Virus record (IMG/VR): IMGVR_UViG_3300042562_001138
Location: 897 to 64,896 of that record
Origin: a virus
Taxonomy: Duplodnaviria > Caudoviricetes
DNA length: 64,000 nt
Strand: one strand, 5' to 3'
The translations under genes and the position numbers were made by a program. Under the pieces are notes generated by a model. The model was given only the letters and a program-made list of their open reading frames with translations. It did no database searches and was not told the DNA's origin. The stretch's first letter is position 1, and each line of letters begins with the position of its first letter. Shown one piece after another: positions 193-63,778 of the stretch.

Positions 193-274
193 TAAAATCT
201 ATAAGATTGCACAATTAATATAGAAAAATACAATCAAAAAATATTTTGAAATTAAAAAACATATAGTAATTTTA
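193..274 (+). promoter_or_regulatory. Putative regulated promoter: TAAAATCTATA box / TCTATA-n15-TATAGA inverted repeat plus -7-like TAATTTTA
   Basis: The same TAAAATCTATA box occurs at 7784-7794 and 63416-63426; each lies 73-75 bp upstream of a -7-type element. Confidence 0.5.
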
Positions 275-290
275 CAAAAAATAATAGGAT

Positions 291-572
291 ATGCAGGAGT
301 TAGAAAAAATGCTAGATAATGTTTGCACAATTTTAAACGTGGACAAACAGGAAGTAAGGAGTAAAAACAGAAAGGAAGATTTAGTTAGAGCAAGAGCTAT
401 ATTTAGTTACATAGCAAGAGAAAGAAAAATAACGTTTTATGCCATAGCTGATGTTTTACATAGAGATCATTCAAGTGTAATACATTTAGTTAAGTTAGCG
501 AAAAACATGGATAATTACATTAAGTTAAAAAACGATTTTGAAAAAGTAGTATATGGAAGAAGTATTTGTTAA
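291..572 (+). CDS. Stand-alone DnaA domain IV-like (Bac_DnaA_C) helix-turn-helix DNA-binding protein
   Basis: SKNRKEDLVRARAIFSYIARE...IADVLHRDHSSVIH matches the DnaA C-terminal signature (S-x-x-R...AR...RDHSTV). No AAA+ domain. Confidence 0.8.
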   Translation: MQELEKMLDNVCTILNVDKQEVRSKNRKEDLVRARAIFSYIARERKITFYAIADVLHRDHSSVIHLVKLAKNMDNYIKLKNDFEKVVYGRSIC

Positions 573-741
573 AGTTAGAGATTTCCTAGACCAACAAGGA
601 ATAAACAAACGAGGATTTTTCTTGGAGATTGGAATGAAGCGAGAAGCATGGGATCAAGTTGTAAGAGGTAGGTTTAAATTTACGCCTAAAATGTATTCCC
701 GGATGTTACCACAATTATTAAAATACGGATATAAAGAATAA
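553..741 (+). CDS. Small HTH-like (XRE/Cro-like) protein
   Basis: 62 aa; GINKRGFFLEIGMKREAWDQVVRG has HTH spacing; overlaps the upstream gene. Confidence 0.5.
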   Translation: MEEVFVKVRDFLDQQGINKRGFFLEIGMKREAWDQVVRGRFKFTPKMYSRMLPQLLKYGYKE

Positions 742-742
742 A

Positions 743-1393
743 ATGGAAACATACATATACATAAGAGTATCAACTGATATACAAGATAATTCAGTAGAGA
801 TGCAAAAGGAACGTTGTGAAGCTTATTGCAAGTATAATAACTTTCCAGTAAAGGAAGTAATTATTGATGTTAATGTTTCGGCTAAGGTAAAGTTATTTGC
901 TAGGGAAGGTGGTAGAATACTAAAGAAGGTAAAAAACGCTAGAGTAGTAACACTTAAATTAGATAGGATGTTTAGGAATACTATGGATTGTTTAGGTTCT
1001 TTGGATGATTTTACCAATAGAAATTGTGCAATCTGCTTTGTGGATATGGGTGGGCAATCACTTGATACAGGTACCGCAATGGGTCGTTGGTTTGTTACCA
1101 TGATGAGTAGCTTTGCAGAATTAGAGCGTAACACTATTTCGGAGCGTACAATCGCTGTATTAAGAAGTAAAAAGGAAAGAGGGGAGAAATATAATGGAAC
1201 TGCTTTATTTGGCTTTAAATGGGGCGAAAATGGTATGGAGGAAAGTGAGGAAATAGAAATTGTAAAAGCTGTAATAGGTATGCTTAAATCGGGATTAAGT
1301 AAAACTGAAATAAAAAGGTTGCACAATTTTCCTAATTTTAAAAAAATATACCAAATAATTAAACGAGAGGAATACCAAGGTTATTGGAATTAA
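743..1393 (+). CDS. Serine recombinase (resolvase/invertase family)
   Basis: N-terminal YIRVST catalytic motif; VSA, KLDRMFR and FAELERNTISERT segments typical of resolvases; 216 aa. Confidence 0.92.
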   Translation: METYIYIRVSTDIQDNSVEMQKERCEAYCKYNNFPVKEVIIDVNVSAKVKLFAREGGRILKKVKNARVVTLKLDRMFRNTMDCLGSLDDFTNRNCAICFVDMGGQSLDTGTAMGRWFVTMMSSFAELERNTISERTIAVLRSKKERGEKYNGTALFGFKWGENGMEESEEIEIVKAVIGMLKSGLSKTEIKRLHNFPNFKKIYQIIKREEYQGYWN

Positions 1394-1727
1394 GGATACA
1401 CCATTAAAATTTAAAACAATGACTGTAAAAGAATTAAAAGAAGCAATTGCAAATCTTCCAGATGAAATGGAAGTGGTTTTGCAGAAAGATAGAGAAGGTA
1501 ATGGATATAGTCCGCTTTCAGATATTGACCCTGATGCTGTTTATATACCTAATAATACTTGGTCGGGTGACGTATATTCAATGGATTGGACAGCGGACGA
1601 TGCTTGTATGTCAGAAGAAGAATGGGAAGAAATAAAGTCAAAACCACGAACATTGATTTTAGCACCTGTCAATTAATGGCTACTACCATCATTCGGATAT
1701 ACGAGGTTATTGGAATTAAGGATACAC
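1378..1727 (+). repeat. 24-bp direct repeat AGGTTATTGGAATTAAGGATACAC (1378-1401, 1704-1727) flanking one ORF
   Basis: Identical 24-mers read directly from the sequence. Confidence 0.9.
1419..1676 (+). CDS. Hypothetical acidic protein (MTVKELKEAIANLPD... family)
   Basis: 85-aa ORF with A-rich leader, between the 24-bp repeats. Confidence 0.75.
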   Translation: MTVKELKEAIANLPDEMEVVLQKDREGNGYSPLSDIDPDAVYIPNNTWSGDVYSMDWTADDACMSEEEWEEIKSKPRTLILAPVN

Positions 1728-1744
1728 AATTAAAAAAGAAAAAT

Positions 1745-2298: not shown

Positions 2299-2427
2299 TG
2301 CTAACGGTTACGGCTTTGTGCAGGTGGGGCATCAAGGCACAAATGTTCAACCCACCACTAAACTTTAATTGAAATACAAAAGATGAATATAGCAGAAACC
2401 CCCACTTGCACAAAACCGATGTTAGGC
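2299..2427 (+). mobile_element. attC-like recombination site 2
   Basis: Starts TGCTAAC, ends GTTAGGC (GTTRRRY). Arms CGGCTTTGTGCAGGTGGGG (2311-2329) and CCCCACTTGCACAAAACCG (2400-2418) are 17/19 complementary. Confidence 0.75.
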
Positions 2428-3333
2428 GTAGTGCTTTCGTTATTCGATGGTATGAGTTGCGGACAAATTGCACTCAACAAAACAGGCATTTCCTATGGCA
2501 AATATTATGCTTCGGAGATTGATAAACACGCCATCAAAGTAACACAACACAACTACCCTAATACAATACAACTTGGGAGTGTTACGGAAATTAAAGGCAC
2601 GGACTTACCACAAATAGATTTATTGATAGGTGGAAGCCCCTGCCAAGGATTTAGTTTTAGCGGAAAGCAATTAAACTTTGACGACCCAAGAAGTAAATTG
2701 TTTTTTGAATTTGTAAGGCTAATTAAAGAATGTAAACCGAAATATTGGCTTTTGGAAAATGTGGTTATGAAAAAGGAATTTGAACAAGTAATAACCGAAC
2801 ATTTAGGAGTTGAGCCTGTGAAGATAAACAGTGCTTTGGTTTCCGCCCAAAATAGAGAACGATTATACTGGGCAAACTTTACGATTGAACAACCAAACGA
2901 TAAAGGCATAAAGCTAATTGATATTTTAGAAGATACTGAAATGATTGAGCCAAGTGCAATAAGAGGGCGAAGATTGAACAAGGCTACTATTTTGGGCAGA
3001 AGATTGAACGACAAAGGCAAACGAGAGGATTACAATAAAGAAATACCAATTACTCAATGCCTTGAAGTGAGAGCCACAAACAGAGATAAGAGCAACTGTT
3101 TAACCACAGTAGCAAAAGACAATGTTTTAACAACAATGCCAATAGGACGACACCCTGACGCATTCAAAAACAATTTGCCTTTCCGCTATTACACAATAAA
3201 GGAATATTGCAGATTACAAACCGTGCCTGAAACTTACTTTGATGGCCTGGCAAGTGAAAACCAAATTAGAAAAATGATAGGAAATGGCTGGAATGTTGAT
3301 ACAATCGCTCATATTTTCGGAGGGCTGTCTTAG
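2383..3333 (+). CDS. C5-cytosine DNA methyltransferase (cassette-borne)
   Basis: Motif I SLFDGMSCG, catalytic GGSPCQGFS, LLENV, QNRERLY, C-terminal GNGW. Confidence 0.95.
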   Translation: MNIAETPTCTKPMLGVVLSLFDGMSCGQIALNKTGISYGKYYASEIDKHAIKVTQHNYPNTIQLGSVTEIKGTDLPQIDLLIGGSPCQGFSFSGKQLNFDDPRSKLFFEFVRLIKECKPKYWLLENVVMKKEFEQVITEHLGVEPVKINSALVSAQNRERLYWANFTIEQPNDKGIKLIDILEDTEMIEPSAIRGRRLNKATILGRRLNDKGKREDYNKEIPITQCLEVRATNRDKSNCLTTVAKDNVLTTMPIGRHPDAFKNNLPFRYYTIKEYCRLQTVPETYFDGLASENQIRKMIGNGWNVDTIAHIFGGLS

Positions 3334-3973: not shown

Positions 3974-6046
3974 GTGATGATTGAATACGTAAAAAAAATG
4001 CAATCTTTAGGCTTTAGTGTTTTCCCACTAAATACTAAAAAGGAGCCTAACTTTAAGAAGGGAGGAGAGATTAATAGTTATTCATGGATGGACTTTAATG
4101 TTAAAACAAATAAATTCCCTATTACCGAAAACACAGAAAGTAATTTTATTTTCTTAGGTATTGGCTGTGGAGATATGAGTAATAACTTAGAGGTGATTGA
4201 TGTTGATAGTAAGTATGAGTTAAATCAGGATTTATACGGTGAATTTAAAACTTTGTTGGAGGATAATTTAGAGTGTTTTTCCAAATTGTGCATCGTACAA
4301 ACTGTTTCCAAAGGTTATCACTTAATGTATTACTGTGAAACTATACAGGGTAATCAAAAGTTAGCGCAAAGGCATTTATCTAGGGATGAAAAAAATGAGT
4401 TATACGTTAAACTTACTACCGAAGATAAGATTGAGAAGGAAAAAGCTAAATCTTCCTGCCAAACAAAAAAACTTACCTTAATTGAAACTAGAGGACAAGG
4501 AGGTTATGTAGCTACTTACCCAAGTGAAGGTTACACAATTATCCAAGGCTCAATGGAAACAATACCCACAATTACACCCGAAGAAAGGGATATAATTATG
4601 TGTTGTGCCAAAGCAATGGATTTAATTGAGGAAGAAAAGGTAGAAGAAAAGAAAGTAGCTTTGCCTGTATGGGAAGAAGGTAAAAAACCATGGGATGCTT
4701 ACAATGAGCAAATGTCCTCGGATGATATAGCTAATTTATTTATTTCTAATGGATACACAATTACTAGAAGAATAAAAGATAAAATATTTATCAAACGTCC
4801 GGGAGGAACATCGCAATCAGGCAACATACGTTTAAGTGATAAGTTATTTGTGGGACACTCTAGTAATATACCTTTTGAACCACGTAAAGGATATAGTGCT
4901 TCTGCTGTGTTTACAATATTGGAATGTAATGGAGATTTTTCACTTGCAGGAAGAAAGTTACTTGAAATGGGATATGGCGATAAACCAAAAAAGAAATTGT
5001 CAAACGACTTTGAAATTTTATCAGAAAAGTTTGAGCCGAATAACTATGTAGCTAAAGTAAATTCTAACAGAGATACCATTGAAAAATTCCTACGTGGTGA
5101 ATTTGGTATGGGCTTGCCTACTGGATACCCTACGCTTGATGATTATTACAGATTTAAGTTAGGGAAGTTTGATGTATTTCTAGGGCACGAAAATATCGGT
5201 AAATCAACTGTTTTATGGAACTTAATGGTTGTGGCGAATTTACTGCACAATTGGAGAGGTATAATTTATTCAACAGAAAACGATCCATGGGTAATACAAA
5301 AACAAATGATGGAATTTTTAGTAGGTAAACGTATGGGTTTATTTACAGAAAACGAAAAGGAAATTGCTTATAAATGGTTTGATGAAAACTTTGTGATTAT
5401 AGATAACGAAAAGTTATTAGCGTATAATCAAATATTACAAGTTGCAGAATCATTTTTACTTAAAAAGGAATACCATGTATTAATGATTGACCCATACAAT
5501 ACTTTATCGTACAATTGGGAAGGATTGGATAGGCGCATAGGTACACACGAATACCATCACCATGTGGCTACACAATTTAAACAATGGACAAAGAACATGA
5601 ATTGCAGTATATGGTTAACTATGCACCCTATTTCGGAAGCAATGAGAATTGTGGAAGCATCAGGAGATTTTAAAGGATTAAGAAAAGCTCCTATTTCCTC
5701 TCATGCAGAAGGTGGTGGTAAATGGGCAGCAAAAGCAGATAACTTTGTAGTGTTGCATAGATATACTAAACACGCTACTATGAATCACGTTACGTTCTTT
5801 GATGTTCAGAAGGTAAAGGAAACATTTACAGGAGGTAAACCAATGTCAGATGGCAACGCTTTTAAAATGTCTTTAACAAATTACGGAGGTTTTGTTGGGT
5901 TTTTTGATGAAAATAATTCGTGTCCATTGCAAGGAATTTTCAGAAAAAGATTTATCTTTGGGGAACAAATGGAAATTCAACAAGAAATAGAACAACCACG
6001 AAGCCGATTATCTAAATGGTCGGATGATATAAAAGCACCATTCTAA
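3974..6046 (+). CDS. Bifunctional primase/polymerase (Prim-Pol) fused to DnaB-like SF4 helicase
   Basis: N-terminal GFSVFPL, LEVIDVD, TVSKGYHLMY, ETRGQGGYV (Prim-Pol); C-terminal Walker A GHENIGKS and Walker B LMIDPYN. Confidence 0.88.
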   Translation: MMIEYVKKMQSLGFSVFPLNTKKEPNFKKGGEINSYSWMDFNVKTNKFPITENTESNFIFLGIGCGDMSNNLEVIDVDSKYELNQDLYGEFKTLLEDNLECFSKLCIVQTVSKGYHLMYYCETIQGNQKLAQRHLSRDEKNELYVKLTTEDKIEKEKAKSSCQTKKLTLIETRGQGGYVATYPSEGYTIIQGSMETIPTITPEERDIIMCCAKAMDLIEEEKVEEKKVALPVWEEGKKPWDAYNEQMSSDDIANLFISNGYTITRRIKDKIFIKRPGGTSQSGNIRLSDKLFVGHSSNIPFEPRKGYSASAVFTILECNGDFSLAGRKLLEMGYGDKPKKKLSNDFEILSEKFEPNNYVAKVNSNRDTIEKFLRGEFGMGLPTGYPTLDDYYRFKLGKFDVFLGHENIGKSTVLWNLMVVANLLHNWRGIIYSTENDPWVIQKQMMEFLVGKRMGLFTENEKEIAYKWFDENFVIIDNEKLLAYNQILQVAESFLLKKEYHVLMIDPYNTLSYNWEGLDRRIGTHEYHHHVATQFKQWTKNMNCSIWLTMHPISEAMRIVEASGDFKGLRKAPISSHAEGGGKWAAKADNFVVLHRYTKHATMNHVTFFDVQKVKETFTGGKPMSDGNAFKMSLTNYGGFVGFFDENNSCPLQGIFRKRFIFGEQMEIQQEIEQPRSRLSKWSDDIKAPF

Positions 6047-7872: not shown

Positions 7873-8994
7873 ATGAATATGAAAGATTTTCCCAAGGAGC
7901 TTGCACACTTAGAAAAATACGCTAAATACTGCAAAAAATTAAAAGAAGGAGTATATGGTTTCTTTATTAACCAATTTAATGAAGATGGAACAAAGAATAT
8001 AGATTGGTATGAGTTTAGACCTAATACATTAGGTGCTTCTGAAACTGCAACTGCTTGTGAAGGTGGTTATGATGAATACGGAGTACGTGCAAAGTTGTTT
8101 TGGAGTAAGTTAGGCAAAAAGTTTCCGGAAATTAAATCTAAATTTACCTTTTGGGGATTGGAGTTAGAAAGAAACGTGGCAAACGCATGGGAGTATTACG
8201 ATGCTACACCCGAAGGATATATTGATAATAGATATGCAGGACAAAAGGTTAGGAATTATCAAGAACTTAATTGTTACGCTATTAATATTAAATACCCTTA
8301 TTTATCCGCTTCATTTGACTTTTTAGTACCCGAAGGGCAGGTTAACCCATTTACAGGAGAGATAGTTGATTATTCGTATCCTTTGGAGATTAAAACAATT
8401 TCAACTGCTGCTGCCGAAAAATACGAATTAGGTTTACCAGTACGATATATTTTCCAAACGCACCAACAAATGATAATTTGGGAGGTTGATTATTGTGAGA
8501 TAGCTGCACTTAAAGGAGGTACTGATTTTGAGGTTTATCCGATTTATATGAATGAAGGTATTAAGGAAATGGTATTGAGAGAAACTAAGGAGTTTTGGAA
8601 TTTAGTTGAAACTGCACGACCTATATATACTGAATTAGATGTATGTTTTGATGAAAAGAAAAAAGAAGAGTACGTTGCACAATTAGATAACTTAGAACCT
8701 GCACCCGAACAAAACAAAGGCTACGAAGATTTTTGGAAGGAGAAGTATAGAGAAACAAGCGAGAAGAAAGAGAAACAAGGTAACGAAGAGGACTGGGCAA
8801 TTGCAGTAGGTTATAAAAAGATATTGGATCAAGAAAAGGAATTATCCGAGAAGAAACAATTGTATAAAAACAATTTGCTTTATACTATGAAGGATTGTGA
8901 GGAATTAACCTTTGGTGAGAATGGTAGAGTAGTACACCGTAACCACGAACACAGTAGGACTTATTTTGGAGTGAATATTAAAAATTATAAGTAA
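7873..8994 (+). CDS. YqaJ-like (lambda exonuclease family) recombination nuclease
   Basis: LGASE, GLELE, LSASFD, EIKT, QTHQQM motifs. Start placed at 7873 because TAAATTTG (7857-7864) overlaps the track start. Confidence 0.85.
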   Translation: MNMKDFPKELAHLEKYAKYCKKLKEGVYGFFINQFNEDGTKNIDWYEFRPNTLGASETATACEGGYDEYGVRAKLFWSKLGKKFPEIKSKFTFWGLELERNVANAWEYYDATPEGYIDNRYAGQKVRNYQELNCYAINIKYPYLSASFDFLVPEGQVNPFTGEIVDYSYPLEIKTISTAAAEKYELGLPVRYIFQTHQQMIIWEVDYCEIAALKGGTDFEVYPIYMNEGIKEMVLRETKEFWNLVETARPIYTELDVCFDEKKKEEYVAQLDNLEPAPEQNKGYEDFWKEKYRETSEKKEKQGNEEDWAIAVGYKKILDQEKELSEKKQLYKNNLLYTMKDCEELTFGENGRVVHRNHEHSRTYFGVNIKNYK

Positions 8995-53567: not shown

Positions 53568-54332
53568 ATTCTCTTACTTTTAGTTTAACATACTCACAAA
53601 ACTAATCATTATATCCATAACTAACAAAAAAAACTTGTATCCGTACGGTGGAGAAAGTAGACTAACTTGTTGTAAATCAATATTATAAAAATTGTGCGTG
53701 TTGCGTTTTTTTAATACCTTTTACCGTACCTTTACTACATCCCAGTAAATACGTTTATACTCACCCGAAATGTTGTATCCGTACGGTGGAGAAAGTAGAC
53801 TTTTCCATTGATTATCAGTTACTTAAAAAAATTGCAAAAAATTTATTTTCGCTTACTCTTGCATATAACAGCCTTTCATAATACCTTTATACCCGACAAT
53901 TAAATAAATTATTAATCAAAACTTAAACGCTCTTTAACTTATTTATTTACTCGTGTTAACTGAAATGTACCGCGGATGTTCGTGGTGGGGGTTATGTGGT
54001 GGAGTGGAGGGGGTGGAATCCGAATGGGGAAACGCAAATCTGCGACTGGGTAGGGGTCAAAACGAATTTCAAACTGTTTTAACTAACTGATTTTTAATCG
54101 TTTACGTTTTGAACAACTACTTTTTTATTGCGCTTTTTTTTACTACCCACGAACGGTGGTGGGGAATTTTTCCCTATATTATACCGCGCGAAATATATAA
54201 ACGCGCATACGTGCGATATAACGCGCGATTTATAATCGTTTGATAGTTAGGTATAGGCGGAATACTAATAGTTTAACATGTGCCAAATAAATGGGCTTAA
54301 TTCCTTTTAAGTTTATCTATCTTTATTAACTT
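53568..54332. other. Non-coding strand-switch region (candidate genome end, packaging site or origin)
   Basis: No ORF of 60 aa or more; divergent transcription; direct repeats, G-tract cluster 53983-54057, CGCG cluster 54185-54228. Confidence 0.55.
53635..53801 (+). repeat. 29-bp direct repeat TTGTATCCGTACGGTGGAGAAAGTAGACT (53635-53663, 53773-53801)
   Basis: Identical copies 138 bp apart; internal palindrome CCGTACGG. Confidence 0.9.
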
Positions 54333-54686
54333 ATGGGCTTTGATAAGGATGAAACGGGTAAATTTGCAATTAAATACAGTAAATCACATTGCATACAGTT
54401 ACATAAGCTTTTAACTAAAAAACGCATAAGTAAAACGCATCTTTGTTTTATTCTCTCAGTTTCTGCACCAACTACGGCAACACGTTTAATCAATCAACCT
54501 TATTTACTCTCTTTACAACAATTAATTAATCTATCTTTTGCGCTTAATGTTTCTTTATATGATTTAGTTAGGATTATATGTGAGGATTTTAAAAATTGTG
54601 CAACGTCCTTTGATTCTGATTTACTTTTATTCGTACCTCCGCATATTAGAGAGTTAACTAAATCTAGTGAGTGGTTTGAGCGTTAA
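54333..54686 (+). CDS. XRE-like HTH regulator
   Basis: LLTKKRISKTHLCFIL...TATRLIN...LINLSFALNV. Confidence 0.65.
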   Translation: MGFDKDETGKFAIKYSKSHCIQLHKLLTKKRISKTHLCFILSVSAPTTATRLINQPYLLSLQQLINLSFALNVSLYDLVRIICEDFKNCATSFDSDLLLFVPPHIRELTKSSEWFER

Positions 54687-54865
54687 ACAAATTGTGCATC
54701 AATCTATTTTTTTAGTTCCTATTTTTTTTTGTGATCCTTTACCTGTTTTGCGCTAATTTTTACGCTTTATTCTATCCTTTTAATTTTTTCTTTAAAATAA
54801 ATGTAAAATTATTTGCTTGATTTACAACACTTTAAACTTTTTATCAAAAAAAACATTTAAAATAA

Positions 54866-54898
54866 TTTGCATTTACAAAACATTTATTCTTATCTTTG
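54866..54898 (+). promoter_or_regulatory. Bacteroidota primary-sigma promoter for early genes
   Basis: -33 TTTG (54866-54869), 21-nt spacer, -7 TATCTTTG (54891-54898). Confidence 0.75.
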
Positions 54899-54937
54899 TT
54901 TCATCAATCAATCAGTAATCAATTAAACGCAAATGTT

Positions 54938-55228
54938 ATGAGCCACGAAAAATTTATAAAACAGTTAAACAAAAGGTTTCCTAATTTAATCGTTTTACCT
55001 TCAAATGTATTCAATAAAGATAGCGTTGGCGGTTTATGGTTAAAAAACGCTTCTTGTATTACGTACACTAAAAAGGATTTAAATACTATTTGCGCCATTG
55101 ATAACGGTTTATTTGTAAACTATAAACTTTACGATATAGACGTTTATAATAAATTTAGTAAATGGTGTAAAAAGCGTGGATACTATTGTAGTACTTCGGA
55201 ATACACATTAATGGTTTATCCTTTATAA
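54938..55228 (+). CDS. Hypothetical early protein
   Basis: ATG at 54938 (MSHEKF), in frame with track ORF 54896..55228 and downstream of the promoter. Confidence 0.7.
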   Translation: MSHEKFIKQLNKRFPNLIVLPSNVFNKDSVGGLWLKNASCITYTKKDLNTICAIDNGLFVNYKLYDIDVYNKFSKWCKKRGYYCSTSEYTLMVYPL

Positions 55229-55280
55229 AAATTGTGTATCAATCTAAAAAAAAAATATTAACAACTTAAAAATTAAAGCC

Positions 55281-55724
55281 ATGAAAAATCAAGAAAAATT
55301 AACCCAGTCAATTTTAAACAACAAATCTTTATTGAAAAACATTAATAGCCATGTTTATGGAGGTACGGAAGCCGAAAAAATAAACTATTTTATTGACAAT
55401 GCAAAAAGGTATATTAAAGCCATTAAAGAAGAGAGAATGATTTGTAAAATAGTAAGTGTTTCACAAAGTGGCATGAGCAGAAGGATTTATTTTAGTGAAT
55501 TTTGTTTTGATAACAAGCAAAAAAGGGGTTTTATATATCAATTCCATGTTTTTTTTCAAACATTAGGGTATAAATCAAATAATAATGGATTTTTAATTAA
55601 TGGATGTGGAATGGATATGATATTCCATACTAACTACACTATTATTCATGAGCTTTGTAGTTTAGGATTTATAACTAAAGATGAGTGTAGAGTTTTAGCA
55701 CAAAAAACGCCTAAAAATATTTAA
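55281..55724 (+). CDS. Hypothetical early protein (SVSQSGMSR...GCGMDM family)
   Basis: 147 aa with conserved-looking SQSGMSRRI and INGCGMDMIF motifs. Confidence 0.75.
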   Translation: MKNQEKLTQSILNNKSLLKNINSHVYGGTEAEKINYFIDNAKRYIKAIKEERMICKIVSVSQSGMSRRIYFSEFCFDNKQKRGFIYQFHVFFQTLGYKSNNNGFLINGCGMDMIFHTNYTIIHELCSLGFITKDECRVLAQKTPKNI

Positions 55725-55740
55725 GTAAATTGTGTGATCA

Positions 55741-55816
55741 ACTTGACTAAGCAAGTATAAACAGGCTTTTAGGCTTAGAGCGTTTAAAGGGGTATTTTAG
55801 CCCCTTTAAGGTAGCA
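55741..55816 (+). ncRNA. Pistol self-cleaving ribozyme
   Basis: P1 ACUUG/CAAGU; loop CUAAG pairs with CUUAG (pseudoknot); AUAAACAG linker; P2 GCU/AGC; AGCG; P3 UUAAAGGGG/CCCCUUUAA; GGU cleavage junction. Element order matches the pistol consensus. Confidence 0.85.
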
Positions 55817-55852
55817 AAATACAAATTGTGTAACAATCTAAAAATTAAAACT

Positions 55853-56035
55853 ATGGTACGTTATTTTAACATTAAAGGCAATTACGGAGTTGAAACCGTT
55901 GACGAAATAAACAGCGCGGAATTTAAAACATTTAAAGAGTTTAAAACTGAATTAAACAGGCTTTTTAAAGAGTATCAAATTTCAGGTTTTAGCGTTTATA
56001 TTTCGCAAAAAGCGGATAAAAGTTGGAAAAAATAA
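55853..56035 (+). CDS. Hypothetical early protein
   Basis: ATG at 55853 (MVRYFNIKG...VETVDE) after the repeated leader. Confidence 0.7.
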   Translation: MVRYFNIKGNYGVETVDEINSAEFKTFKEFKTELNRLFKEYQISGFSVYISQKADKSWKK

Positions 56036-56064
56036 ATAAAGTAACAATCTAAAAATTTAAAACT

Positions 56065-56355
56065 ATGGAATTAATTAATGTAACTATAGGTGACGTAAAT
56101 CACAAAATTATCAAAGATAAAATTCGTGATAATTATCAAGTTGTATCTCAATTTAAAGATGATATGTGTGTAGAGATTTTTAATTTTGAAACACTTGCAG
56201 AGGCTAAAAACCACTTAGATAATGAGGTAAATACTCATATTGAAATGCTTGCAAATTTAGAGGAATATTTAATTTTAGCCTTAGAAAAGGCAGAAATTTT
56301 AAACCTAGATATAAGCGAAAATATAAACGAAATTTTAAATAAATTAAAAATTTAG
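56065..56355 (+). CDS. Hypothetical early protein
   Basis: ORF track; repeated leader. Confidence 0.7.
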   Translation: MELINVTIGDVNHKIIKDKIRDNYQVVSQFKDDMCVEIFNFETLAEAKNHLDNEVNTHIEMLANLEEYLILALEKAEILNLDISENINEILNKLKI

Positions 56356-56359
56356 AAAC

Positions 56360-56521
56360 ATGAAAAAATATAAATTTACAAAAGGCGTTTTAAATAAGAT
56401 CACAAACGAATATTATAATTTAACGCTTTTTTCGGGTGAAAATGTAATATACAAAGCAACCATAACAAGTAATGAAGCCTGTAAATTAGTTAATAAACAC
56501 AATAATATTGTGATTGAATAA
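56360..56521 (+). CDS. Hypothetical early protein (53 aa, not in track)
   Basis: MKKYKFTKGVLNK...NIVIE; fills the gap in the operon. Confidence 0.55.
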   Translation: MKKYKFTKGVLNKITNEYYNLTLFSGENVIYKATITSNEACKLVNKHNNIVIE

Positions 56522-56524
56522 ACA

Positions 56525-56695
56525 ATGGCAAAACTACTAATGTTACTATTTTTAAACTCAAATAGTTTAAAGATAAAAGGCGAAAAAATCGAAATATTCA
56601 AAGATATGGAGCGTGGATATAGTGCAATTTACAAAGGCGAATATTACGAAGGATACACAAAAAAGGATCTAAAAAAACAAATTAAAAATCAATAA
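56525..56695 (+). CDS. Hypothetical early protein (56 aa, not in track)
   Basis: MAKLLMLLFLNSN...KKQIKNQ; fills the gap in the operon. Confidence 0.55.
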   Translation: MAKLLMLLFLNSNSLKIKGEKIEIFKDMERGYSAIYKGEYYEGYTKKDLKKQIKNQ

Positions 56696-56706
56696 AAACA
56701 AACAAC

Positions 56707-56925
56707 ATGAAATTTAACATTAAACAAATACGTAATGGGATTGAATCAGCATACGGATACGAAAATTTATCTATTGAGGATGCAATTTATGAATTAAGAA
56801 AAAATGAAATTGTATCTGATATTTACACTAAAGAAGAGATAATTAGTTTAGTTAATAACATGAAACCAAAACAAATTAAATATTTTGGTACACAATGGAT
56901 TGAAATAAAATTGCAATGTATATAA
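56707..56925 (+). CDS. Hypothetical early protein
   Basis: ORF track; AAAAACAAACAAC leader. Confidence 0.7.
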   Translation: MKFNIKQIRNGIESAYGYENLSIEDAIYELRKNEIVSDIYTKEEIISLVNNMKPKQIKYFGTQWIEIKLQCI

Positions 56926-56956
56926 TAAACTTATGCAAGTGTAAAAAAAAAAGTAG

Positions 56957-57255
56957 TAACATTTAAAAAACAAACAACATGAAAAATTATAGTTTACAAT
57001 CATGCGAAAATGCAATAGATAAATATGTTAATGAATTAGGTGGTTATTGTACGCAAATATATGAAGGTACTTTGGGATTAGGATTTTTGATCCTACATGA
57101 TGCGCCCGGATACAAAAATATATTAATCAAGGAATATTTTATAAATAGTTGGTTAAGTGGGCACAAAGTAACAAAGTATAAAGTTTTACCAAAAAAATAT
57201 AGGGATTTAATAAACTCAATAGATTAACATTTAAAAAACAAACAACATGAAAAAT
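56957..57255 (+). repeat. 31-bp direct repeat TAACATTTAAAAAACAAACAACATGAAAAAT (56957-56987, 57225-57255)
   Basis: Identical leader-plus-start copies on consecutive genes; partial third copy at 56694-56712. Confidence 0.85.
56979..57227 (+). CDS. Hypothetical early protein
   Basis: 82 aa (EGTLGLG...IKEYFINSW). Confidence 0.7.
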   Translation: MKNYSLQSCENAIDKYVNELGGYCTQIYEGTLGLGFLILHDAPGYKNILIKEYFINSWLSGHKVTKYKVLPKKYRDLINSID

Positions 57256-58548
57256 ATAGAAAAATATATAACTAAAAAAACACAAGTTTTTACGGAAAAA
57301 GATAAAACAGTTATTTTTATTCCAGAAGGCAGAATTGTATTAAATAAACCTTACAAAAATATAAATAGCAAGTTAGTTTTATCCTCTCAAGGTGAAAATG
57401 TTTTTAATGAGGATTTAAAAACCGATATTGAAACCGCTAAAGACATTACAAGTAACATTTTACCGGAACTAGAAAAAATTAAATTAGCCTCTAAATTTTG
57501 TGGTAAGGACGATTTACGCCCTATTATGAATAATGTATTTATCAGTAATGGTGATGTAGTGGCTACTGATGCTCATATATTAGTTAAGTATTCAAATTGT
57601 GCAAGCTTAATGGATTTTGACAGGCTTTTATTTAATTCAAATATAGTTGGTTTATTAGAGGGCGCAAAAGTGATTAAACAAGCCGATAAATTTATATACA
57701 TTGAACATAATGATTTTTATGTTATAAGTTTTACTGATAGTGGCAAATATCCTAATTACAATGCTGTAATTGTAAGGAATGATTTAATTAACAAAGCTGT
57801 TAACATACAAATTAATGAGGATTTTAAACAAGCTTTAAATTTAACTAATACAGTAACAAATTGCATAAATATTTATGATGATAAAGTAAAATATTACATT
57901 GAACAGGAAGCGCAAATAAATGAGTTTGATATTAAACAAATTGATGTTAAATTAAACGACAATTTAACTGTTTTAATGATGCCAATTATGGGCGATACAA
58001 AAACGCCAAACAATCAAGATATATCCCTAAATTGTAAAACGCTTAAAAAAATAGTAGATGCTTTTAAATTGAATAGTGTTAATATTAATATTGCTGATGC
58101 AAATAAGCCTATGCTTATAACATTTGAACAAGAAAAAACAACAATTAAAAAACCAAAACCAAAAACCATGGAAAAACAAGAAACAAAAAGCGTAGATACT
58201 GATATTTTATCAGCTTTAATGCAACAAATTAACGCCTTAACACAACAAGTAGCGGAATTAAAAAACCAACAAATTAGTGCCCCAAAAATAGATAGTGAAC
58301 CTATTAAAGAGAGTGCAAAAATTGAAGCTAAACAGCCTATTAATACTGAAAAGCCAATTATTAAAGTACAAAAGTATTCGGAAAAAAGCTTAATCGTATA
58401 TGGTGATACTAAACTTATCAAAGCTGAACTAATGGAATTACACGCGCGTTTTAATCCATTCCTAAAATTAGATGAGGTTAAAACACCTGGCTGGATCGTA
58501 TCGGTAAAGCATGAGGGAAAAATAAACCAAATTGTGCAAGCATTATAA
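57247..58548 (+). CDS. DNA polymerase III beta-clamp-like domain protein with C-terminal YSEK domain
   Basis: KDDLRPIMNNVFI...VVATDAH, GKYPNYNAVI, VLMMPI resemble DnaN domains; C-terminal YSEKSLIVYGDTK...RFNPFL...PGWIV. Confidence 0.65.
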   Translation: MKNIEKYITKKTQVFTEKDKTVIFIPEGRIVLNKPYKNINSKLVLSSQGENVFNEDLKTDIETAKDITSNILPELEKIKLASKFCGKDDLRPIMNNVFISNGDVVATDAHILVKYSNCASLMDFDRLLFNSNIVGLLEGAKVIKQADKFIYIEHNDFYVISFTDSGKYPNYNAVIVRNDLINKAVNIQINEDFKQALNLTNTVTNCINIYDDKVKYYIEQEAQINEFDIKQIDVKLNDNLTVLMMPIMGDTKTPNNQDISLNCKTLKKIVDAFKLNSVNINIADANKPMLITFEQEKTTIKKPKPKTMEKQETKSVDTDILSALMQQINALTQQVAELKNQQISAPKIDSEPIKESAKIEAKQPINTEKPIIKVQKYSEKSLIVYGDTKLIKAELMELHARFNPFLKLDEVKTPGWIVSVKHEGKINQIVQAL

Positions 58549-58583
58549 TTTAAACAAGTATTAATATTTAAAAACAAATAGCC

Positions 58584-59120
58584 ATGCAAAAAGTAAACAG
58601 ATTTAAGAAAAATATAGCTTTACAAGTTATACAAGAAAAGCAACGAATAAACAAACAAATGTTAAGTATTATTGAAGCAGTTAAAAGTGTTGAATACTCA
58701 AAATACATTACTCTAGTTGGTAAACAAATAGAGGTTAGAAACTCAATATTTATTTACAGTCAAAATGCTTATAAATATAATAGTGCATACGGTATAACGC
58801 ATAACCACACGCCTATTGACAATGAGGAAAGACCAATTACAAATTGTATTGAAGTTGACTACTACAATTACTGTATTTTAAACAACAACTTTAAAATTAA
58901 TATTGGTAGTATTGAAGAGTATCACAAAAAAGGCGTACAGCATTTACTTATACCAAAGTTTAATTCAGGTGCCAATAAGGATTTATATACTAAATTGTGT
59001 ATTGATATTTTTAACGATGCTGCAAAAGATTTGCAAGCCTTTAGAGTTGAAAAACAAACTTTAGTTGACGATGCTTATATGATCCATTTTGGATTTTATG
59101 TTAATCGAGCTTTTTATTAA
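58584..59120 (+). CDS. Hypothetical early protein
   Basis: 178-aa ORF. Confidence 0.7.
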   Translation: MQKVNRFKKNIALQVIQEKQRINKQMLSIIEAVKSVEYSKYITLVGKQIEVRNSIFIYSQNAYKYNSAYGITHNHTPIDNEERPITNCIEVDYYNYCILNNNFKINIGSIEEYHKKGVQHLLIPKFNSGANKDLYTKLCIDIFNDAAKDLQAFRVEKQTLVDDAYMIHFGFYVNRAFY

Positions 59121-59152
59121 ACAAATTGTGTAACATTTAAAATTTAAAAATC

Positions 59153-59602
59153 ATGAAAAAAATTATTGAAATAAGGGAGCAAGCTATGGAATTAATCGAA
59201 TACGGTGATTCAAAAGAAAAGGCAGAAGGACGCGGAATGTTAAGAGTATTAAAGGAATGGCAGTCAATTTTAAAACCTGAATATACTAATCATAGCGTTT
59301 TTGAAACAAGTGGTGAATATATTGAAGAGGTTTCAGAATTTTCGCTTAAACTAAAAATAATCTTTAAATACTTACCATTTAGTACGGTTAAAGGGTATTA
59401 CATTACTACTTTTGGTGTAGATTTAAATTTTGAAGATATGTTTTATATTTCGGGTAAATTTAAAGGTGAGGATTGTTCTGCTTTTTTAAAACTGGGTAAA
59501 TACTTATTAAACATAAATATGCACCCATACAATGAAATGGGAGGTTTTGATAGTGTAGCTTTTGAGGATCAATTTAAAAGATTAGTTAATCAAATTGTGT
59601 AA
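59153..59602 (+). CDS. Hypothetical early protein
   Basis: 149-aa ORF with repeated leader. Confidence 0.7.
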   Translation: MKKIIEIREQAMELIEYGDSKEKAEGRGMLRVLKEWQSILKPEYTNHSVFETSGEYIEEVSEFSLKLKIIFKYLPFSTVKGYYITTFGVDLNFEDMFYISGKFKGEDCSAFLKLGKYLLNINMHPYNEMGGFDSVAFEDQFKRLVNQIV

Positions 59603-59618
59603 CTTTAATAAAAAAACT

Positions 59619-59789
59619 ATGGCAAATTTTGATACAAAACTACAAATAGCTTCCGTTTTAGCATCAGAGGACTACTTAAATGCTATTATTGAAGAAATGG
59701 AAAATGTAAAAACAATAGGCGCAAAGCGACAATTTATTTACGAAATTACCTTATACGAATTAATTAAAAACTTTGTAAATCTTAACTAA
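59619..59789 (+). CDS. Hypothetical early protein
   Basis: ATG at 59619 (MANFDTK) within track ORF 59595..59789. Confidence 0.6.
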   Translation: MANFDTKLQIASVLASEDYLNAIIEEMENVKTIGAKRQFIYEITLYELIKNFVNLN

Positions 59790-59791
59790 AC

Positions 59792-59974
59792 ATGATAACT
59801 GAAAATAGATTATTTAATACAAAATTAATTTCAATCCAAAAGGATTATATTAAAGTAGTAAACTGTATTGTATCCTGTAAAACACGCATCCAGGAGCAAA
59901 ATGCGGAAAAGCTAAAGGAATTTTTTAAGCGTAAACACATTGACAATCCTTTTTACTCACAATTTAAGTTTTAA
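59792..59974 (+). CDS. Hypothetical early protein
   Basis: ORF track. Confidence 0.6.
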   Translation: MITENRLFNTKLISIQKDYIKVVNCIVSCKTRIQEQNAEKLKEFFKRKHIDNPFYSQFKF

Positions 59975-59977
59975 GCT

Positions 59978-60151
59978 ATGGTTATATATGCAAGTATGGT
60001 AAACATACCACTAGAGGAATTAAAGCGCGTATATACGCCTTTAAATGCGGAATTAACAATAAAGGAAGTGCAGGTGCTTGCACAATTAGTAAAAATCAAA
60101 ACAAACAAACTATGGGAGCTAATAGAATCAAAAAAAATATCCTTTCAGTAA
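59978..60151 (+). CDS. Hypothetical early protein (57 aa, not in track)
   Basis: MVIYASMVNIPLEELKR...KISFQ. Confidence 0.5.
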   Translation: MVIYASMVNIPLEELKRVYTPLNAELTIKEVQVLAQLVKIKTNKLWELIESKKISFQ

Positions 60152-60211
60152 TTAAAACTATATACCTTTATGCTGTATTGGTTATAGTGTGGGTAAAGTG
60201 TAAATAGCAAA

Positions 60212-60535
60212 TTGTGTAACCTTAAAAAAATACTTGTGGAAACTTATCAGGAATACAAACAAAAGAAAAGCGAAATTGATGCTACGCTTCAAAAAATAGA
60301 AACAATCCTACAATCTTTTCCTAAAACAGAATGGGGGCTGGTCCCGGATGAAGTTAGAAAATCAGATTTTTACATAAAAACTAAAAATGATTGGAATATA
60401 TACTTTTCGCTTTTGCAATCTATTCATACAATCGGAATGAAAAAGTTTAAAAAGGAAATTCAAAAAGAAATACAGGACAAAAGAGATGTGGCAACAAAAA
60501 AATATATGCTTGATAAATTAACGCCACACAATTAA
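60212..60535 (+). CDS. Hypothetical protein
   Basis: GLVPDEVRKS motif; start uncertain. Confidence 0.6.
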   Translation: MCNLKKILVETYQEYKQKKSEIDATLQKIETILQSFPKTEWGLVPDEVRKSDFYIKTKNDWNIYFSLLQSIHTIGMKKFKKEIQKEIQDKRDVATKKYMLDKLTPHN

Positions 60536-60907
60536 AATTAAACAAAATGAAAAATCACGAAGGTTTTATTAGAGGATACCATAGAAACAGTAAGGCTTGG
60601 TATGCAAAATACGTAAAGAAAAATAATATAGAAGTGGGATTCGGGATGTATAATTCTGATGGTGGAACTTCTGGAGAAATGGTTATGGAGTGGGTGGAAT
60701 TAAATGGGAGATTATGCGCAAGGCTTAAATGTTTTCAGGATGGGTGGTCTTCTTTATCATCTTTTACCGACTTAATTCAGAAAATGGGAGAAGTTGATAG
60801 CGAATTAATACAAGAAGAAGATTTTTGTAAAATACTTAACGAATGTGGTTTTACTGACTTAACTGCATATACAAATATACGCTTTTAAAATTAACGCCAC
60901 ACAATTA
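60515..60907 (+). repeat. 20-bp direct repeat AAATTAACGCCACACAATTA (60515-60534, 60888-60907) flanking one ORF
   Basis: Identical 20-mers read directly. Confidence 0.9.
60547..60888 (+). CDS. Hypothetical protein (inserted gene)
   Basis: 113 aa (GGTSGEM...W...RLKCFQDGW); G-richer than neighbours; between the 20-bp repeats. Confidence 0.75.
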   Translation: MKNHEGFIRGYHRNSKAWYAKYVKKNNIEVGFGMYNSDGGTSGEMVMEWVELNGRLCARLKCFQDGWSSLSSFTDLIQKMGEVDSELIQEEDFCKILNECGFTDLTAYTNIRF

Positions 60908-60911
60908 GAAA

Positions 60912-61374: not shown

Positions 61375-61943
61375 TGGAAAAGAAACAATTTGAACAAATA
61401 GTAAAAGGTATTATAGAAGAATCTTTTATAACCTTAGTAAAATCAAAAAGATTAAAATTAAATAAAGTATTAACAATTATAAATTTACAGGAAATATACC
61501 TTATAAATCATGATTACTTAGATATTGTCTGTAAACTTTACATAGACGATGCCGATTTTGAATCAGATAATGATTATAAAGAGGTGGTTGAAAAAAGAAA
61601 TGAATTGTTACAGAAAATATCTGAAAAAATAAAAATACCGAAAAGATTTAACCAATTAAGCGATAATGAAAAACAGGTAAAAGATGATTTAAATGAATCT
61701 TGTGAAAAAATAGTGAATTTATCTGACTTTTTAAAAGAAATTATAGATGACGCAAATAAATCGGATGCAAATAATTTTGTGTTTCATAAGTTTCTTGATA
61801 GATTAAATTTAGAAATTAAACTTGTTTTAACTATGAACTATGCTTACAATGATAATTTTTCTGAAAATTCATTATCGCATTTTAAAAATATAGCTCATAA
61901 AATCTTAGATTTACAAGAAGAAATAAACAAATTAACAGAATAA
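61374..61943 (+). CDS. Hypothetical helical protein
   Basis: 189-aa ORF coupled to the RHH gene. Confidence 0.7.
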   Translation: MEKKQFEQIVKGIIEESFITLVKSKRLKLNKVLTIINLQEIYLINHDYLDIVCKLYIDDADFESDNDYKEVVEKRNELLQKISEKIKIPKRFNQLSDNEKQVKDDLNESCEKIVNLSDFLKEIIDDANKSDANNFVFHKFLDRLNLEIKLVLTMNYAYNDNFSENSLSHFKNIAHKILDLQEEINKLTE

Positions 61944-61953
61944 TATATCACAC

Positions 61954-62111
61954 AAAAAAAAAGGGAGGTTTTATCCTCCCTTTTAGCTTTTAAACAAACA
62001 AAAAAACAACCTCAAAATATATGGAAAAACACTATGAGCTTAAAAGAATTGGGGGTAAATAACTTTAGTTAAACACCCCCAATAATTAATCTACTTTGCG
62101 AATAGAGATTA
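61954..62111 (-). ncRNA. Candidate small RNA
   Basis: On the - strand: -7 TAAATTTG (62112-62119) with -33 TTTG (62139-62142, 19-nt spacer); internal hairpin TTGGGGGT...ACCCCCAA; ends in GGGAGG/CCTCCC terminator with U9. Confidence 0.45.
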
Positions 62112-62217
62112 CAAATTTATAGCTTTTTTTTAAACCTACAAATTATTTAGGATAAAAATTTCATTAAAAGCAAATTATTTTTTATATTTGTAATCTAAAA
62201 TTAATCACTTTGCTTCA

Positions 62218-63246
62218 ATGAACAACACAAAACTAAAAATAAAAGTTTTCCCTGCACTGTACGAAGTCTTACTACAAAAAGACTTGGATACTGCATATCT
62301 TTTTTTTGGTGTTTGGAAAAAAGTTCATTCAACAATGTTTGATTATAAATCAGAACTGGGAGTAGCTAAAATGACTGCAATAATGGGTTGTAGTAATTCA
62401 ACTACTCGTAGGATGATTAAACAACTTTTCGCTTTAGGCTGGGTTACAGAAGAGTTAGGAAATGCAAATCACCTTAGATTTGTATCTAACAAAACGCTTC
62501 TTGCACAATTTGGACTAAGCGAAAAACAAAGCGCATTTAATGTTCCTTATGTTGGAAAACAAACAAGGGATATTATGAGCCTATCCGTTTTAATCCTAAA
62601 CCTTGCAAGGCAGGATTTCACAATTACCGAAAAACTAAATCGTAATATCGGCAAATTTCTAGCGAAAATTTATGCAGCAAACAAATCCGCTTGTGCGGAT
62701 GCTGTACAAAATGAGCGTGGTATGAAACAGTTTTTCCTTAATTTTGACATCACTATCACAAGGGCAGGTATCGCCAAAGCTATTAACCGTTTATCTATAA
62801 GTTCAGGTCTAAACCTGTTGAATAGATTATCGAAAATGGGACTTGTTGAGTCCGATGTAAATAGAATTGCAAAGTTATCTGATAAGGCAAACGGACACTA
62901 CAAAAACACCTATGATAAATCAGCTTACGTAAACAGTAAAGGCGAACTTTGGATGCAGTTACCTAATAAGGTTAAATTCAATGATATTCGCTCTGTTGAT
63001 AGTTTACTAAGGGAATTATCTTCCGGCTTAAAAAAACAAGCTAATGTGTGTTTTAAATATAACGCTTCTTATCAAGAGAATATGTTAGAATTATTTGCTA
63101 ACGTTGATCAAAGAAAAAGTGTTTATTTAGAATATTCAGAAAAAGATTTTAATTTAAGTAAAACTAAGAAAGGTTTAGAGATTATTAAAAAGGATAATCC
63201 TTTATATCATGTTTACTTAAATAAAAGTATGCTTAATCATAATTAA
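62218..63246 (+). CDS. Winged-HTH protein, possible replication initiator
   Basis: Two wHTH-like segments (MGCSNSTTRRMIKQLFALGWV; RAGIAKAINRLS...LSKMGLV); -7 element TATATTTG at 62183-62190. Confidence 0.55.
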   Translation: MNNTKLKIKVFPALYEVLLQKDLDTAYLFFGVWKKVHSTMFDYKSELGVAKMTAIMGCSNSTTRRMIKQLFALGWVTEELGNANHLRFVSNKTLLAQFGLSEKQSAFNVPYVGKQTRDIMSLSVLILNLARQDFTITEKLNRNIGKFLAKIYAANKSACADAVQNERGMKQFFLNFDITITRAGIAKAINRLSISSGLNLLNRLSKMGLVESDVNRIAKLSDKANGHYKNTYDKSAYVNSKGELWMQLPNKVKFNDIRSVDSLLRELSSGLKKQANVCFKYNASYQENMLELFANVDQRKSVYLEYSEKDFNLSKTKKGLEIIKKDNPLYHVYLNKSMLNHN

Positions 63247-63520
63247 AGAAAAGATTTAAGTCTTTATTTAATTAAGCTTTATAGGTTCGCTAAAGTAGTT
63301 ACAGTTTCTGACAACAAAACAAGAAGGTTTGCAAATAGCTTACCTAAATTTTTTTTTGTATATACCCAAGAAAAAAAAAGAAGTATAAGCAACCAGAGAA
63401 AAAAGCGTAAATAGATAAAATCTATATTGATGCACAATTCCAATAGAAAATTAATATAAAATAAATGTTTTGAAAAAAGAAAAGAAATATTATCTTTGAA
63501 AAAAGATTTAAAGAAAGTAT

Positions 63521-63778
63521 ATGGAACTAGAACACATTAAAGCAAATGGCGTTTATTACAGACCACAAAAAGCAGGCGTTAAGGATAAATATAAAAAATT
63601 TGGAAATTATCCAGTTTGCACAATTAAGAAACTATGGTTTGGATTTTGGCAAATAGATTATTACTGTGAGGTTACAGCATGGAAAAAAGGGTATGTACAG
63701 GATGGAGAGGAAAATTATCCAAATAAACGTATTATTTTAAGCCCTTTACATATTCAAGAAATAAGTTATAAGTTATGA
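63521..63778 (+). CDS. Hypothetical protein
   Basis: 85 aa; -7 element TATCTTTG at 63491-63498. Confidence 0.65.
   Translation: MELEHIKANGVYYRPQKAGVKDKYKKFGNYPVCTIKKLWFGFWQIDYYCEVTAWKKGYVQDGEENYPNKRIILSPLHIQEISYKL

Follow-up and report, generated by a model that had tools for sequence, protein, structure and literature searches.

Genome-saturating exact words are known for bacterial chromosomes, among them Chi, KOPS (FtsK-orienting polar sequences), and DNA-uptake sequences. What would lead a phage to keep such a word of its own, and what reads it? The question is raised by the virus record IMGVR_UViG_3300042562_001138 (IMG/VR), a 64,896-bp record rated complete by CheckV, of which we analyzed bases 897–64896 as one stretch of 64,000 nucleotides (the window). 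Pfam and PHROG matches of the open reading frames (ORFs) in the window identify a small crAss-like podophage. A first-pass annotation, made from the letters alone, had picked out the non-palindromic 9-mer AATTGTGYA (Y, C or T) along the whole window and had proposed that the phage is selected to carry it as a protein-recognition site. We found that the word is real, strict, under selection genome-wide, and clade-specific. Together with its flanks (C-W...W-C), it may be the recognition word of a clade-encoded, sequence-specific DNA-binding protein; as a full explanation, regulatory roles included, this is the reading that we favor, with a confidence that falls somewhat below even.

The Word Is Exact and Strongly Enriched

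A word search on both strands found 94 exact sites in the window, 54 on the plus and 40 on the minus strand, with the variable base being C in 46 and T in 48. The sites begin at position 208 and end with the one at 63617–63625, giving a density of ∼1 per 680 bp; the full 64,896-bp record likewise has 94, with none in the 896 bases outside the window. Dinucleotide shuffles gave 2.99 ± 1.83 sites with a maximum of 9, and none of 100 shuffles reached 94. An order-2 Markov model predicted 1.16 + 2.45 = 3.6 sites. The manual figures of the first-pass annotation (about 90 copies, roughly 1 per 700 bp, and a 30-fold enrichment) thus all hold, at 94 sites versus ∼3 expected.

We then used two codon-aware shuffles, in both of which the 14 intergenic or edge sites were held fixed. 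Shuffling synonymous codons within genes left a total of 29.5 ± 3.1 sites (maximum of 43), including ∼15 coding copies compared with the 80 observed; shuffling whole codons within genes left 15.9 ± 1.8 (maximum of 22), with only ∼2 coding copies. Because sites are lost under both nulls, both codon choice and amino acid sequence must have been adapted to the word, at a cost to the proteins that extends beyond codon choice to tripeptide content. Amino acid bias alone, which the annotation had also judged insufficient, does not account for the copies, and the codon- and dinucleotide-aware shuffles that it had named as the means of refuting its proposal fail to reproduce the observed count.

The word is exact at all nine positions. 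The 25 classes of single-substitution variants sum to 63 copies against 72 expected, and each class lies at 0–4 times its expectation, compared with 26 times for AATTGTGYA itself. Beyond the nine bases, the sites share an extended consensus of ∼13 bp, C-W-AATTGTGYA-W-C, in which the flanks (C at −2 and C at +10) are weaker. Spacing of the sites is Poisson-like, with a coefficient of variation (CV) of 0.97 in the window and 0.94–1.11 across four genomes of the clade. Regular spacing is ruled out by these values, which correspond to random placement.

The Word Is Conserved Within One Phage Clade

A search with the terminase identified six related records, in five of which we counted the word. 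It occurs 96 times in 70 kb, 101 times in 63 kb, 83 times in 52 kb, 33 times in 24 kb, and 23 times in 19 kb, and the reversed control word occurs 0–1 times in the same five. The record with 101 sites (G002) is rated 100% complete. Where the window could be aligned with three of these relatives, the word was kept at 66 of 83 positions in G001, 69 of 81 in G002, and 30 of 55 in G003 (55–85%), whereas the fraction of control 9-mers staying identical was 0.29, 0.28, and 0.11, respectively. Retention was equal for sense sites (18/21, 17/20, and 8/16 in G001, G002, and G003) and antisense sites (40/51, 44/51, and 21/35). Each relative also has 14–20 new sites at aligned positions that are empty in the window. 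Lost sites are therefore replaced elsewhere, and with totals of 94, 96, 101, and 83, the word turns over at constant density. The suggestion of the first pass to look for the motif in related phages was borne out in this way, by five records at the same density and by site-by-site conservation above controls. The word is under purifying selection and is a property of this small clade of lake-water crAss-like phages.

Outside the clade, the word disappears. More distant relatives (TerL identity of ≤40%) have six copies in total among 79 loci and 810,620 bases; a scan of 35 of these loci, each ≥9 kb long, for some other word repeated to a comparable degree found none. No copy is present in 50 kb of Flavobacterium phage elemoA or in 50 kb of MW202828. 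As a separate observation, the first 50 kb of MW202828.1, the nearest database relative by terminase, contains the perfect palindrome GTGTCGTTAACGACAC ∼22 times.

Scanning viral contigs for two copies of the word returned at least 115 loci, which are mostly chance inverted repeats; among the two-copy loci listed, 74 of 115 contain nothing beyond the pair. Two unrelated large-virus contigs, one of them named a giant-virus metagenome-assembled genome (MAG), carry local arrays of inverted AATTGTGCA...TGCACAATT pairs. For one array (L341; first 7.7 kb of record G710), 19 sites were counted in 11 kb, yet the whole 122-kb record has only 21; for the other (L289), 17 were counted in 8.1 kb. Such arrays resemble a family of local hairpin repeats in which the word recurs by coincidence, in a genome that is not saturated with it.

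Strand Bias in the Long Gene Arms Reflects Coding Cost

Most sites (80 of 94) lie wholly inside ORFs; 12 are intergenic, and two straddle a gene edge. The copies at 6051, 50551, and 55824 are intergenic, as had been claimed. Within ORFs, 57 sites are antisense and 23 are sense to the gene, and all three frames are used. Antisense copies are read as xxT RCA CAA TTx (n = 37), TRC ACA ATT (n = 15), or xTR CAC AAT Txx (n = 5), and the AQL/TQL and LHN readings that the first pass had cited as evidence of differing frames match these antisense frames.

The raw orientation counts are strikingly split. In the region at 50548–60211, which flanks a divergent 765-bp intergenic region on both sides and which we call early-like on the basis of its position and gene content, 17 sites are sense and 5 are antisense, compared with 13 sense and 59 antisense elsewhere (Fisher p 6e-7). 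The split recurs in G001, G002, and G003. However, the two orientations do not cost a gene the same. TRCACAATT is cheap on the coding strand (A/T-Q-L or C/Y-T-I), whereas AATTGTGYA requires Cys codons in two of three frames. Measured against the codon-shuffle null, ORFs outside the early-like region have 12 sense sites versus 0.49 expected (24-fold) and 55 antisense sites versus 1.64–1.84 expected (30- to 34-fold); the null predicts a sense fraction of 0.21–0.23, and 12/67 is observed (p 0.38–0.65). Coding cost predicts the antisense bias seen in the long gene arms, which show no polarity beyond it. A striking strand bias inside genes can thus be pure coding cost, a caution that follows from this codon-aware test. 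Chi, KOPS, and polar fork or transcription traps thereby lose their main support, and functional polarity in the arms, whether as a polar roadblock, as Chi/KOPS, as lagging-strand priming, or as a mark of two origins, was dropped after the codon-shuffle nulls.

The annotation had considered a host factor equally possible as reader. In its Chi-like form, this explanation holds that the word attenuates the host AddAB/RecBCD nuclease, or is another polar signal of the host, and is densely copied to protect phage DNA ends. AATTGTGYA resembles Chi in being exact, short, non-palindromic, and kept at constant density, and both orientations would be useful on a permuted linear genome. We examined 301 genomes from the genus of a Flavobacterium MAG and 401 genomes from its phylum, Bacteroidota; the closest cultured relatives of the phage by terminase (32% identity) infect Flavobacterium and Cellulophaga. 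In most sampled Bacteroidota, the word is ∼2 times commoner than its reversed control, a further point for a host signal. However, its typical density in these bacteria is 1 per 30–60 kb, and even the densest genomes reach only ∼1 per 15 kb (161 copies in 2.4 Mb, 217 in 3.3 Mb, and 273 in 4.3 Mb), compared with 1 per 680 bp in the phage. Complete listings of the sites in two single-contig genomes (G248 and G132) showed no replichore skew, with the strands mixed along the whole chromosome. Equal enrichment in the host as a known site, which the first pass had said would refute its proposal, was thus not seen in any sampled genome. The low density weakens and disfavors a host reader, although the true host may lie outside the sample. 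With mixed strands in the bacteria and no polarity beyond coding cost in the phage arms, we consider a Chi-like site very unlikely.

The Early-Like Region Has a Genuine Sense Bias

The early-like region contains 22 sites, a density of 1 per 439 bp compared with 1 per 755 bp elsewhere. Its coding sites are 9 sense and 2 antisense (9/11), which exceeds the null sense fraction of 0.32 (p about 0.001), and its intergenic or edge copies are 6 sense and 3 antisense. A genuine sense bias is confined to this region. Sites also gather at gene boundaries; genome-wide, 16 lie within 30 nt of a gene end versus 6.5 expected (P about 0.001). The copy at 55824–55832 (plus strand) is intergenic; ACAATCTAAAAATTAAAACT follows it, and it ends 20 nt upstream of the ATG at 55853. 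Comparable intergenic copies stand upstream of the ATGs at 55281, 58584, 59153, and 59619, making five right-arm early genes with a copy 20–40 nt upstream of the ATG; these copies are placed after stop codons. On the left side, early copies lie 1–6 nt upstream of the ATGs at 51114 and 51951. Finally, the copy at 50865–50873 (plus strand) is inside the spacer of a predicted host-type promoter (TTG-N-TAnnTTTG, minus strand, ending at 50852), an operator-like position.

If a DNA-binding protein reads the word, it would bind double-stranded phage DNA at ∼95 places per genome. In the early-like region, it would occupy the sense copies between genes, at start codons, and in the promoter spacer and so turn off early transcription, in the manner of an operator or a roadblock. 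Elsewhere, the sites might serve either as brakes, scattered evenly, or as a titration sink by which phage DNA is marked.

The sense bias and the intergenic positions 20–40 nt upstream of early ATGs would also suit a signal for RNA polymerase, in which the word is a promoter-like or pause element that drives or pauses early sense transcription and gives rise to antisense RNAs elsewhere. A single mismatch separates (T)AATTGTG from the Bacteroidota −7 box TAnnTTTG, T stands at −1 in 51 of 115 AATTGTG copies, and the phage is predicted to use host-type TAnnTTTG promoters. Nevertheless, no conserved −33 element is found upstream of the copies, and consensus promoters are already present at the early operons. 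The 67 coding sites outside the early-like region, equally enriched in both orientations, would make no sense as promoters. Nor does any ORF contain the RNA polymerase DxDxD motif, and the early transcripts of phi14:2 share no upstream motif (bioRxiv 10.1101/2020.03.07.982082). We therefore give an RNA polymerase signal little credence. A promoter for a virion RNA polymerase was rejected as a special case, with no DxDxD motif in any ORF; the 2725-aa protein of the phage has no match in Pfam or PHROG.

Three other features lie close to these boundary copies. The right-arm early genes (54687–60211, plus strand) have in common a repeated leader, (AATTGT)GTAACAATCTAAAAATTTAAAACT-ATG, of which the 9-mer is the 5′ part; some leader copies are reduced to the GTAACA... 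part and lack the 9-mer, for example, upstream of 56065, 56979, and 57247. A Pistol self-cleaving ribozyme (RF02679, 63.7 bits versus a gathering score of 34.5) is located between early genes at 55741–55816 (plus strand), ending 8 nt upstream of the copy at 55824. Lastly, CACACAATT, which is one mismatch from the word, precedes the ATGs at 60547 and 60912 (60500–60546 and 60889–60911). The 113-aa gene between its two copies is absent from relatives, and the earlier reading of this place as a gene boundary duplicated around an inserted gene fits the occurrence of CACACAATT on both sides.

A Stand-Alone DnaA Domain IV Protein Is the Best Candidate Reader

That the reader is a phage-encoded protein binding double-stranded DNA seems to us nearly an even call on the sequence evidence. 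Pfam scans of all 73 ORFs yielded four proteins with possible sequence-specific DNA binding: a stand-alone DnaA domain IV protein (DnaA-IV; 93 aa, 291–572, plus strand; Bac_DnaA_C PF08299, E 4.9e-14), a serine resolvase, a Cro-like helix-turn-helix protein (54333–54686, weak Pfam match), and a winged helix-turn-helix protein (62218–63246, weak Pfam match with agreeing protein atlas matches), the last of which was not found in G003.

We regard DnaA-IV as the best candidate because the reverse complement of the word carries W-T-N-CACA and because the protein keeps its DNA-contact motifs. The reverse complement G-W-T-R-C-A-C-A-ATT contains W-T-N-CACA in the register of a DnaA box, and T-N-CACA is present in all 94 copies. 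The protein aligns to residues 342–413 of T. maritima DnaA, and VRAR and R(D/H)HSS(V/I)IH are retained in all homologues seen. From work on 1J1V, we take VRAR and RDHSS-IH to be the DNA-contact residues of DnaA. We found nine homologues, all of 82–102 aa; there are homologues with 56–68% identity. The gene is present in all four near-complete clade genomes (G000–G003) and in one of five distant relatives, and neither a profile scan of genome contigs nor a scan of viral contigs gave matches beyond the clade. Its start is at 291 and is flanked by the copies at 208 and 324, as described in the first pass, which had proposed this protein as a reader.

Several findings weigh against this assignment and, in part, against a regulatory DNA-binding protein in general. 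The full relaxed DnaA box, TTWTNCACA, occurs at 0 of 94 sites; box position 2 is G in about half of them, and T is the rarest base there (∼10%). Three of the nine strict positions (ATT) fall outside the box altogether. TTWTNCACA is even depleted in the window, with 3 occurrences versus 11.7 ± 3.5 expected and at least 3 in all 100 shuffles, a depletion that would fit a DnaA-IV aimed at host boxes. In G003, the DnaA-IV protein is only 34% identical, compared with 60–80% for most core proteins, and the word is the same. The intragenic position of 80 of 94 sites and their Poisson-like spacing (CV of 0.97) look more like the product of a ubiquitous need, such as priming, than of gene regulation. 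AATTGTG also resembles other sites, such as the lac-operator half-site and the Bacteroidota −7 box, so that likeness to a known site is weak evidence.

The proposal that DnaA-IV is the reader therefore stands in part. Its presence in four of four clade genomes and the T-N-CACA in register agree with it; the lack of full boxes at the sites, the depletion of boxes, and the diverged copy in G003 do not. The co-occurrence of word and gene that the first pass had suggested as a check holds in four of four clade genomes. A further record (G709) encodes two DnaA-IV-like ORFs but has a single copy of AATTGTGYA; a different word, TTGAAGACAC, is moderately repeated there (11 copies). As the specific reader, DnaA-IV is hence a tentative choice that we think more apt to be wrong than right. 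Independently of which protein reads the word, the depletion of DnaA boxes could reflect avoidance by the phage of binding by host DnaA or by its own mini-DnaA.

A Primase-Polymerase Could Read the Word as a Priming Code

The main rival to a double-strand DNA-binding protein is a priming code, in which the word is the single-stranded template recognition and start site of the phage's own primase-polymerase (PrimPol)-helicase. This protein (689 aa, 3977–6046, plus strand) has a borderline match to PF09250 Prim-Pol (23.0 bits versus a cutoff of 22.8) and matches phrog_19930 DNA polymerase/primase (E 1e-57) as well as helicase PHROGs. It is highly conserved in the clade (89, 88, and 74% identity in G001, G002, and G003). 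Pfam scans of all 73 ORFs found no DNA polymerase family, and phage DNA synthesis may rely on the host polymerase or on the PrimPol itself. In the priming step, GTG(Y)A would be recognized by the helix bundle of the enzyme, and the primer would start opposite the AATT just 5′ of it, beginning 5′-AATT. Because the enzyme would need the whole word, the genome would have to carry it on both strands every 1–2 kb. Such a code would define self: synthesis would start only at AATTGTGYA, and host DNA, with 1 copy per 30–60 kb, would be left unprimed. We judge the priming code, also in this role as a self-code, to be unlikely but a serious competitor.

For enzymes of the PrimPol-helicase type, 5′-GTG-3′ is described as a strong recognition site with the start at the first base 5′ of GTG, and the NrS-1 polymerase has in addition an 8-nt site, TTTGGTTA (PMC8718748 and PMC12205980). 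AATTGTGYA can be divided accordingly into AATT-GTG-YA, with GTG central and four strict bases 5′ of it. The Poisson-like spacing, the constant density with turnover, the equal enrichment on both strands, the exactness, and the clade limit would all fit a distributed need of replication. Spacing per strand is 1.2–1.6 kb, and the word is missing from the elemo phages, whose primase is of the TOPRIM type.

Other observations argue against priming. We know of no primase that requires nine exact bases, and we estimate that a GTG match has a ∼1-in-5 chance of arising in any 9-mer. Pfam detects no helix-bundle (PriCT) domain in residues 180–360 at E up to 1, and there is no Protein Data Bank (PDB) sequence match. 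A priming site does not predict the enrichment at gene boundaries, the promoter-spacer copy, or the sense bias of the early-like region. If the fork direction were fixed, priming sites should show more strand bias than coding cost explains, which they do not. Moreover, a further record (G706) encodes a PrimPol that is 32% identical and has 0 sites. If the priming code were nonetheless true, it would give the first example of a primase that requires nine template bases and of a genome on which a primase has visibly left its mark.

The Methyltransferases and the ParB-Like Domain Are Rejected as Readers

The first-pass annotation had listed two further kinds of reader, methyltransferases and a ParB-like domain of the giant protein. 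A target of a DNA-modifying or nicking enzyme (for methylation, hypermodification, or site-specific nicks in virion DNA) could account for the enzyme-like exactness at nine positions, and the phage does encode two C5 methyltransferases (2383–3333 and 11425–12678). However, in tblastn searches, neither has a homologue in G002 or G003, and G001 has matches of 30% and 47%; all three keep the word. Since G002 is 100% complete and has 101 sites, the methyltransferases are not the readers. A 30-fold enrichment is not expected of modification targets in any case, and when Y is T, there is no cytosine on the word's own strand. These points make a modification or nicking target the most improbable of the explanations considered here. 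The ParB-like domain of the giant protein was rejected, as it has no Pfam support.

Comparison with Known Systems

The double-strand DNA-binding protein that we favor as reader has its closest known parallel, in terms of behavior, in the stoperator network; copy number, intragenic position, and reader differ. Repressors of Cluster A mycobacteriophages bind >20 identical asymmetric 13-mers across the genome, and stoperators of this L5 gp71 type resemble the sites described here in having many near-identical asymmetric copies over the whole phage genome, read by a phage protein and located in promoters as well as within transcription units (PMC9283540). In contrast to the 20–36 copies of stoperators, AATTGTGYA has ∼94. 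Stoperators sit in short intergenic gaps, whereas the word is inside coding sequence at 80 of 94 sites, intergenic at 12, and in a promoter spacer at one. The orientation of stoperators is tied to transcription; when coding cost is taken into account, this holds for AATTGTGYA in the early-like region alone. Furthermore, stoperators are read by a two-domain immunity repressor that blocks elongation; Pfam scans of the 73 ORFs found no repressor of that family, and there is no sign of lysogeny. A lytic-looking crAss-like clade keeps an exact 9-mer mostly inside genes, compared with stoperators that are about three-fold fewer and lie between genes, and the reader of this word must be important enough to constrain ∼95 sites at once.

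DnaA boxes share with the word the W-T-N-C-A-C-A held in register by its reverse complement, and the phage encodes a bona fide domain IV (PF08299). Unlike a DnaA box, the word does not have TT at box positions 1 and 2 and has a strict extra ATT beyond the box. Unlike DnaA, the phage protein lacks the AAA+ module and therefore cannot work as the initiator does. RNA polymerase is impeded in its passage by DnaA that has bound near the asnC terminator (PMC10950094); the effect is reportedly orientation-dependent (title of Schaefer and Messer 1989). If the mini-DnaA reads the word, this would be the first function for the widespread, unexplained stand-alone DnaA domain IV genes of phages.

The PrimPol-helicases pRN1 ORF904 and NrS-1 polymerase share their architecture with the phage enzyme. 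Like their recognition sites, the word is built around GTG, and synthesis would be expected to begin immediately 5′ of this core (PMC8718748 and PMC12205980). Their sites differ in length and in genomic footprint: known PrimPol sites have 3–4 bases and are not visibly enriched in genomes, compared with nine exact bases and a 30-fold enrichment for AATTGTGYA. If the PrimPol reads the word, a primase would be defining self DNA.

Chi, KOPS, and DNA-uptake sequences are also exact short words that selection keeps dense and even. They are host-wide and polar, whereas AATTGTGYA is confined to the phage and is neither dense nor skewed among the ∼700 sampled genomes. In a partial literature search, no account of a word that saturates the genome of a crAss-like phage turned up. 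For Microbacterium phages, PMC7302621 describes only a 12-copy intergenic 18-mer.

Genome Layout

Among the structural and packaging proteins encoded in the window are a muzzle protein (PF25731), a portal (phrog_6547), the large terminase (TerL; phrog_6681), and an SU10-type capsid protein. The genes form two arms, a plus arm that runs from 54333 across the record ends to 12678 and a minus arm that runs from 53567 down to 12936. Several intergenic regions carry host-type promoters as in Bacteroidota (TTG-N17-23-TAnnTTTG). The phage also encodes a YqaJ exonuclease (7873–8994) and a processivity-factor-like protein (57247–58548, phrog_947). Metagenome DNA runs that contain the phage are labeled as lake water, soil, wetland, and wastewater.

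In G002, the ends of the record overlap exactly over 127 bp, as a "direct terminal repeat." This is the size of a common assembler k-mer overlap; the repeat probably marks a circular assembly and is no evidence of physical genome ends.

The divergent intergenic region between the arms (765 bp, 53568–54332) has 0 copies of the 9-mer and is a candidate origin or control region. Within it are a G-rich tract that is out of keeping with a 31%-GC genome and a pair of nearly identical ∼29-nt direct repeats.

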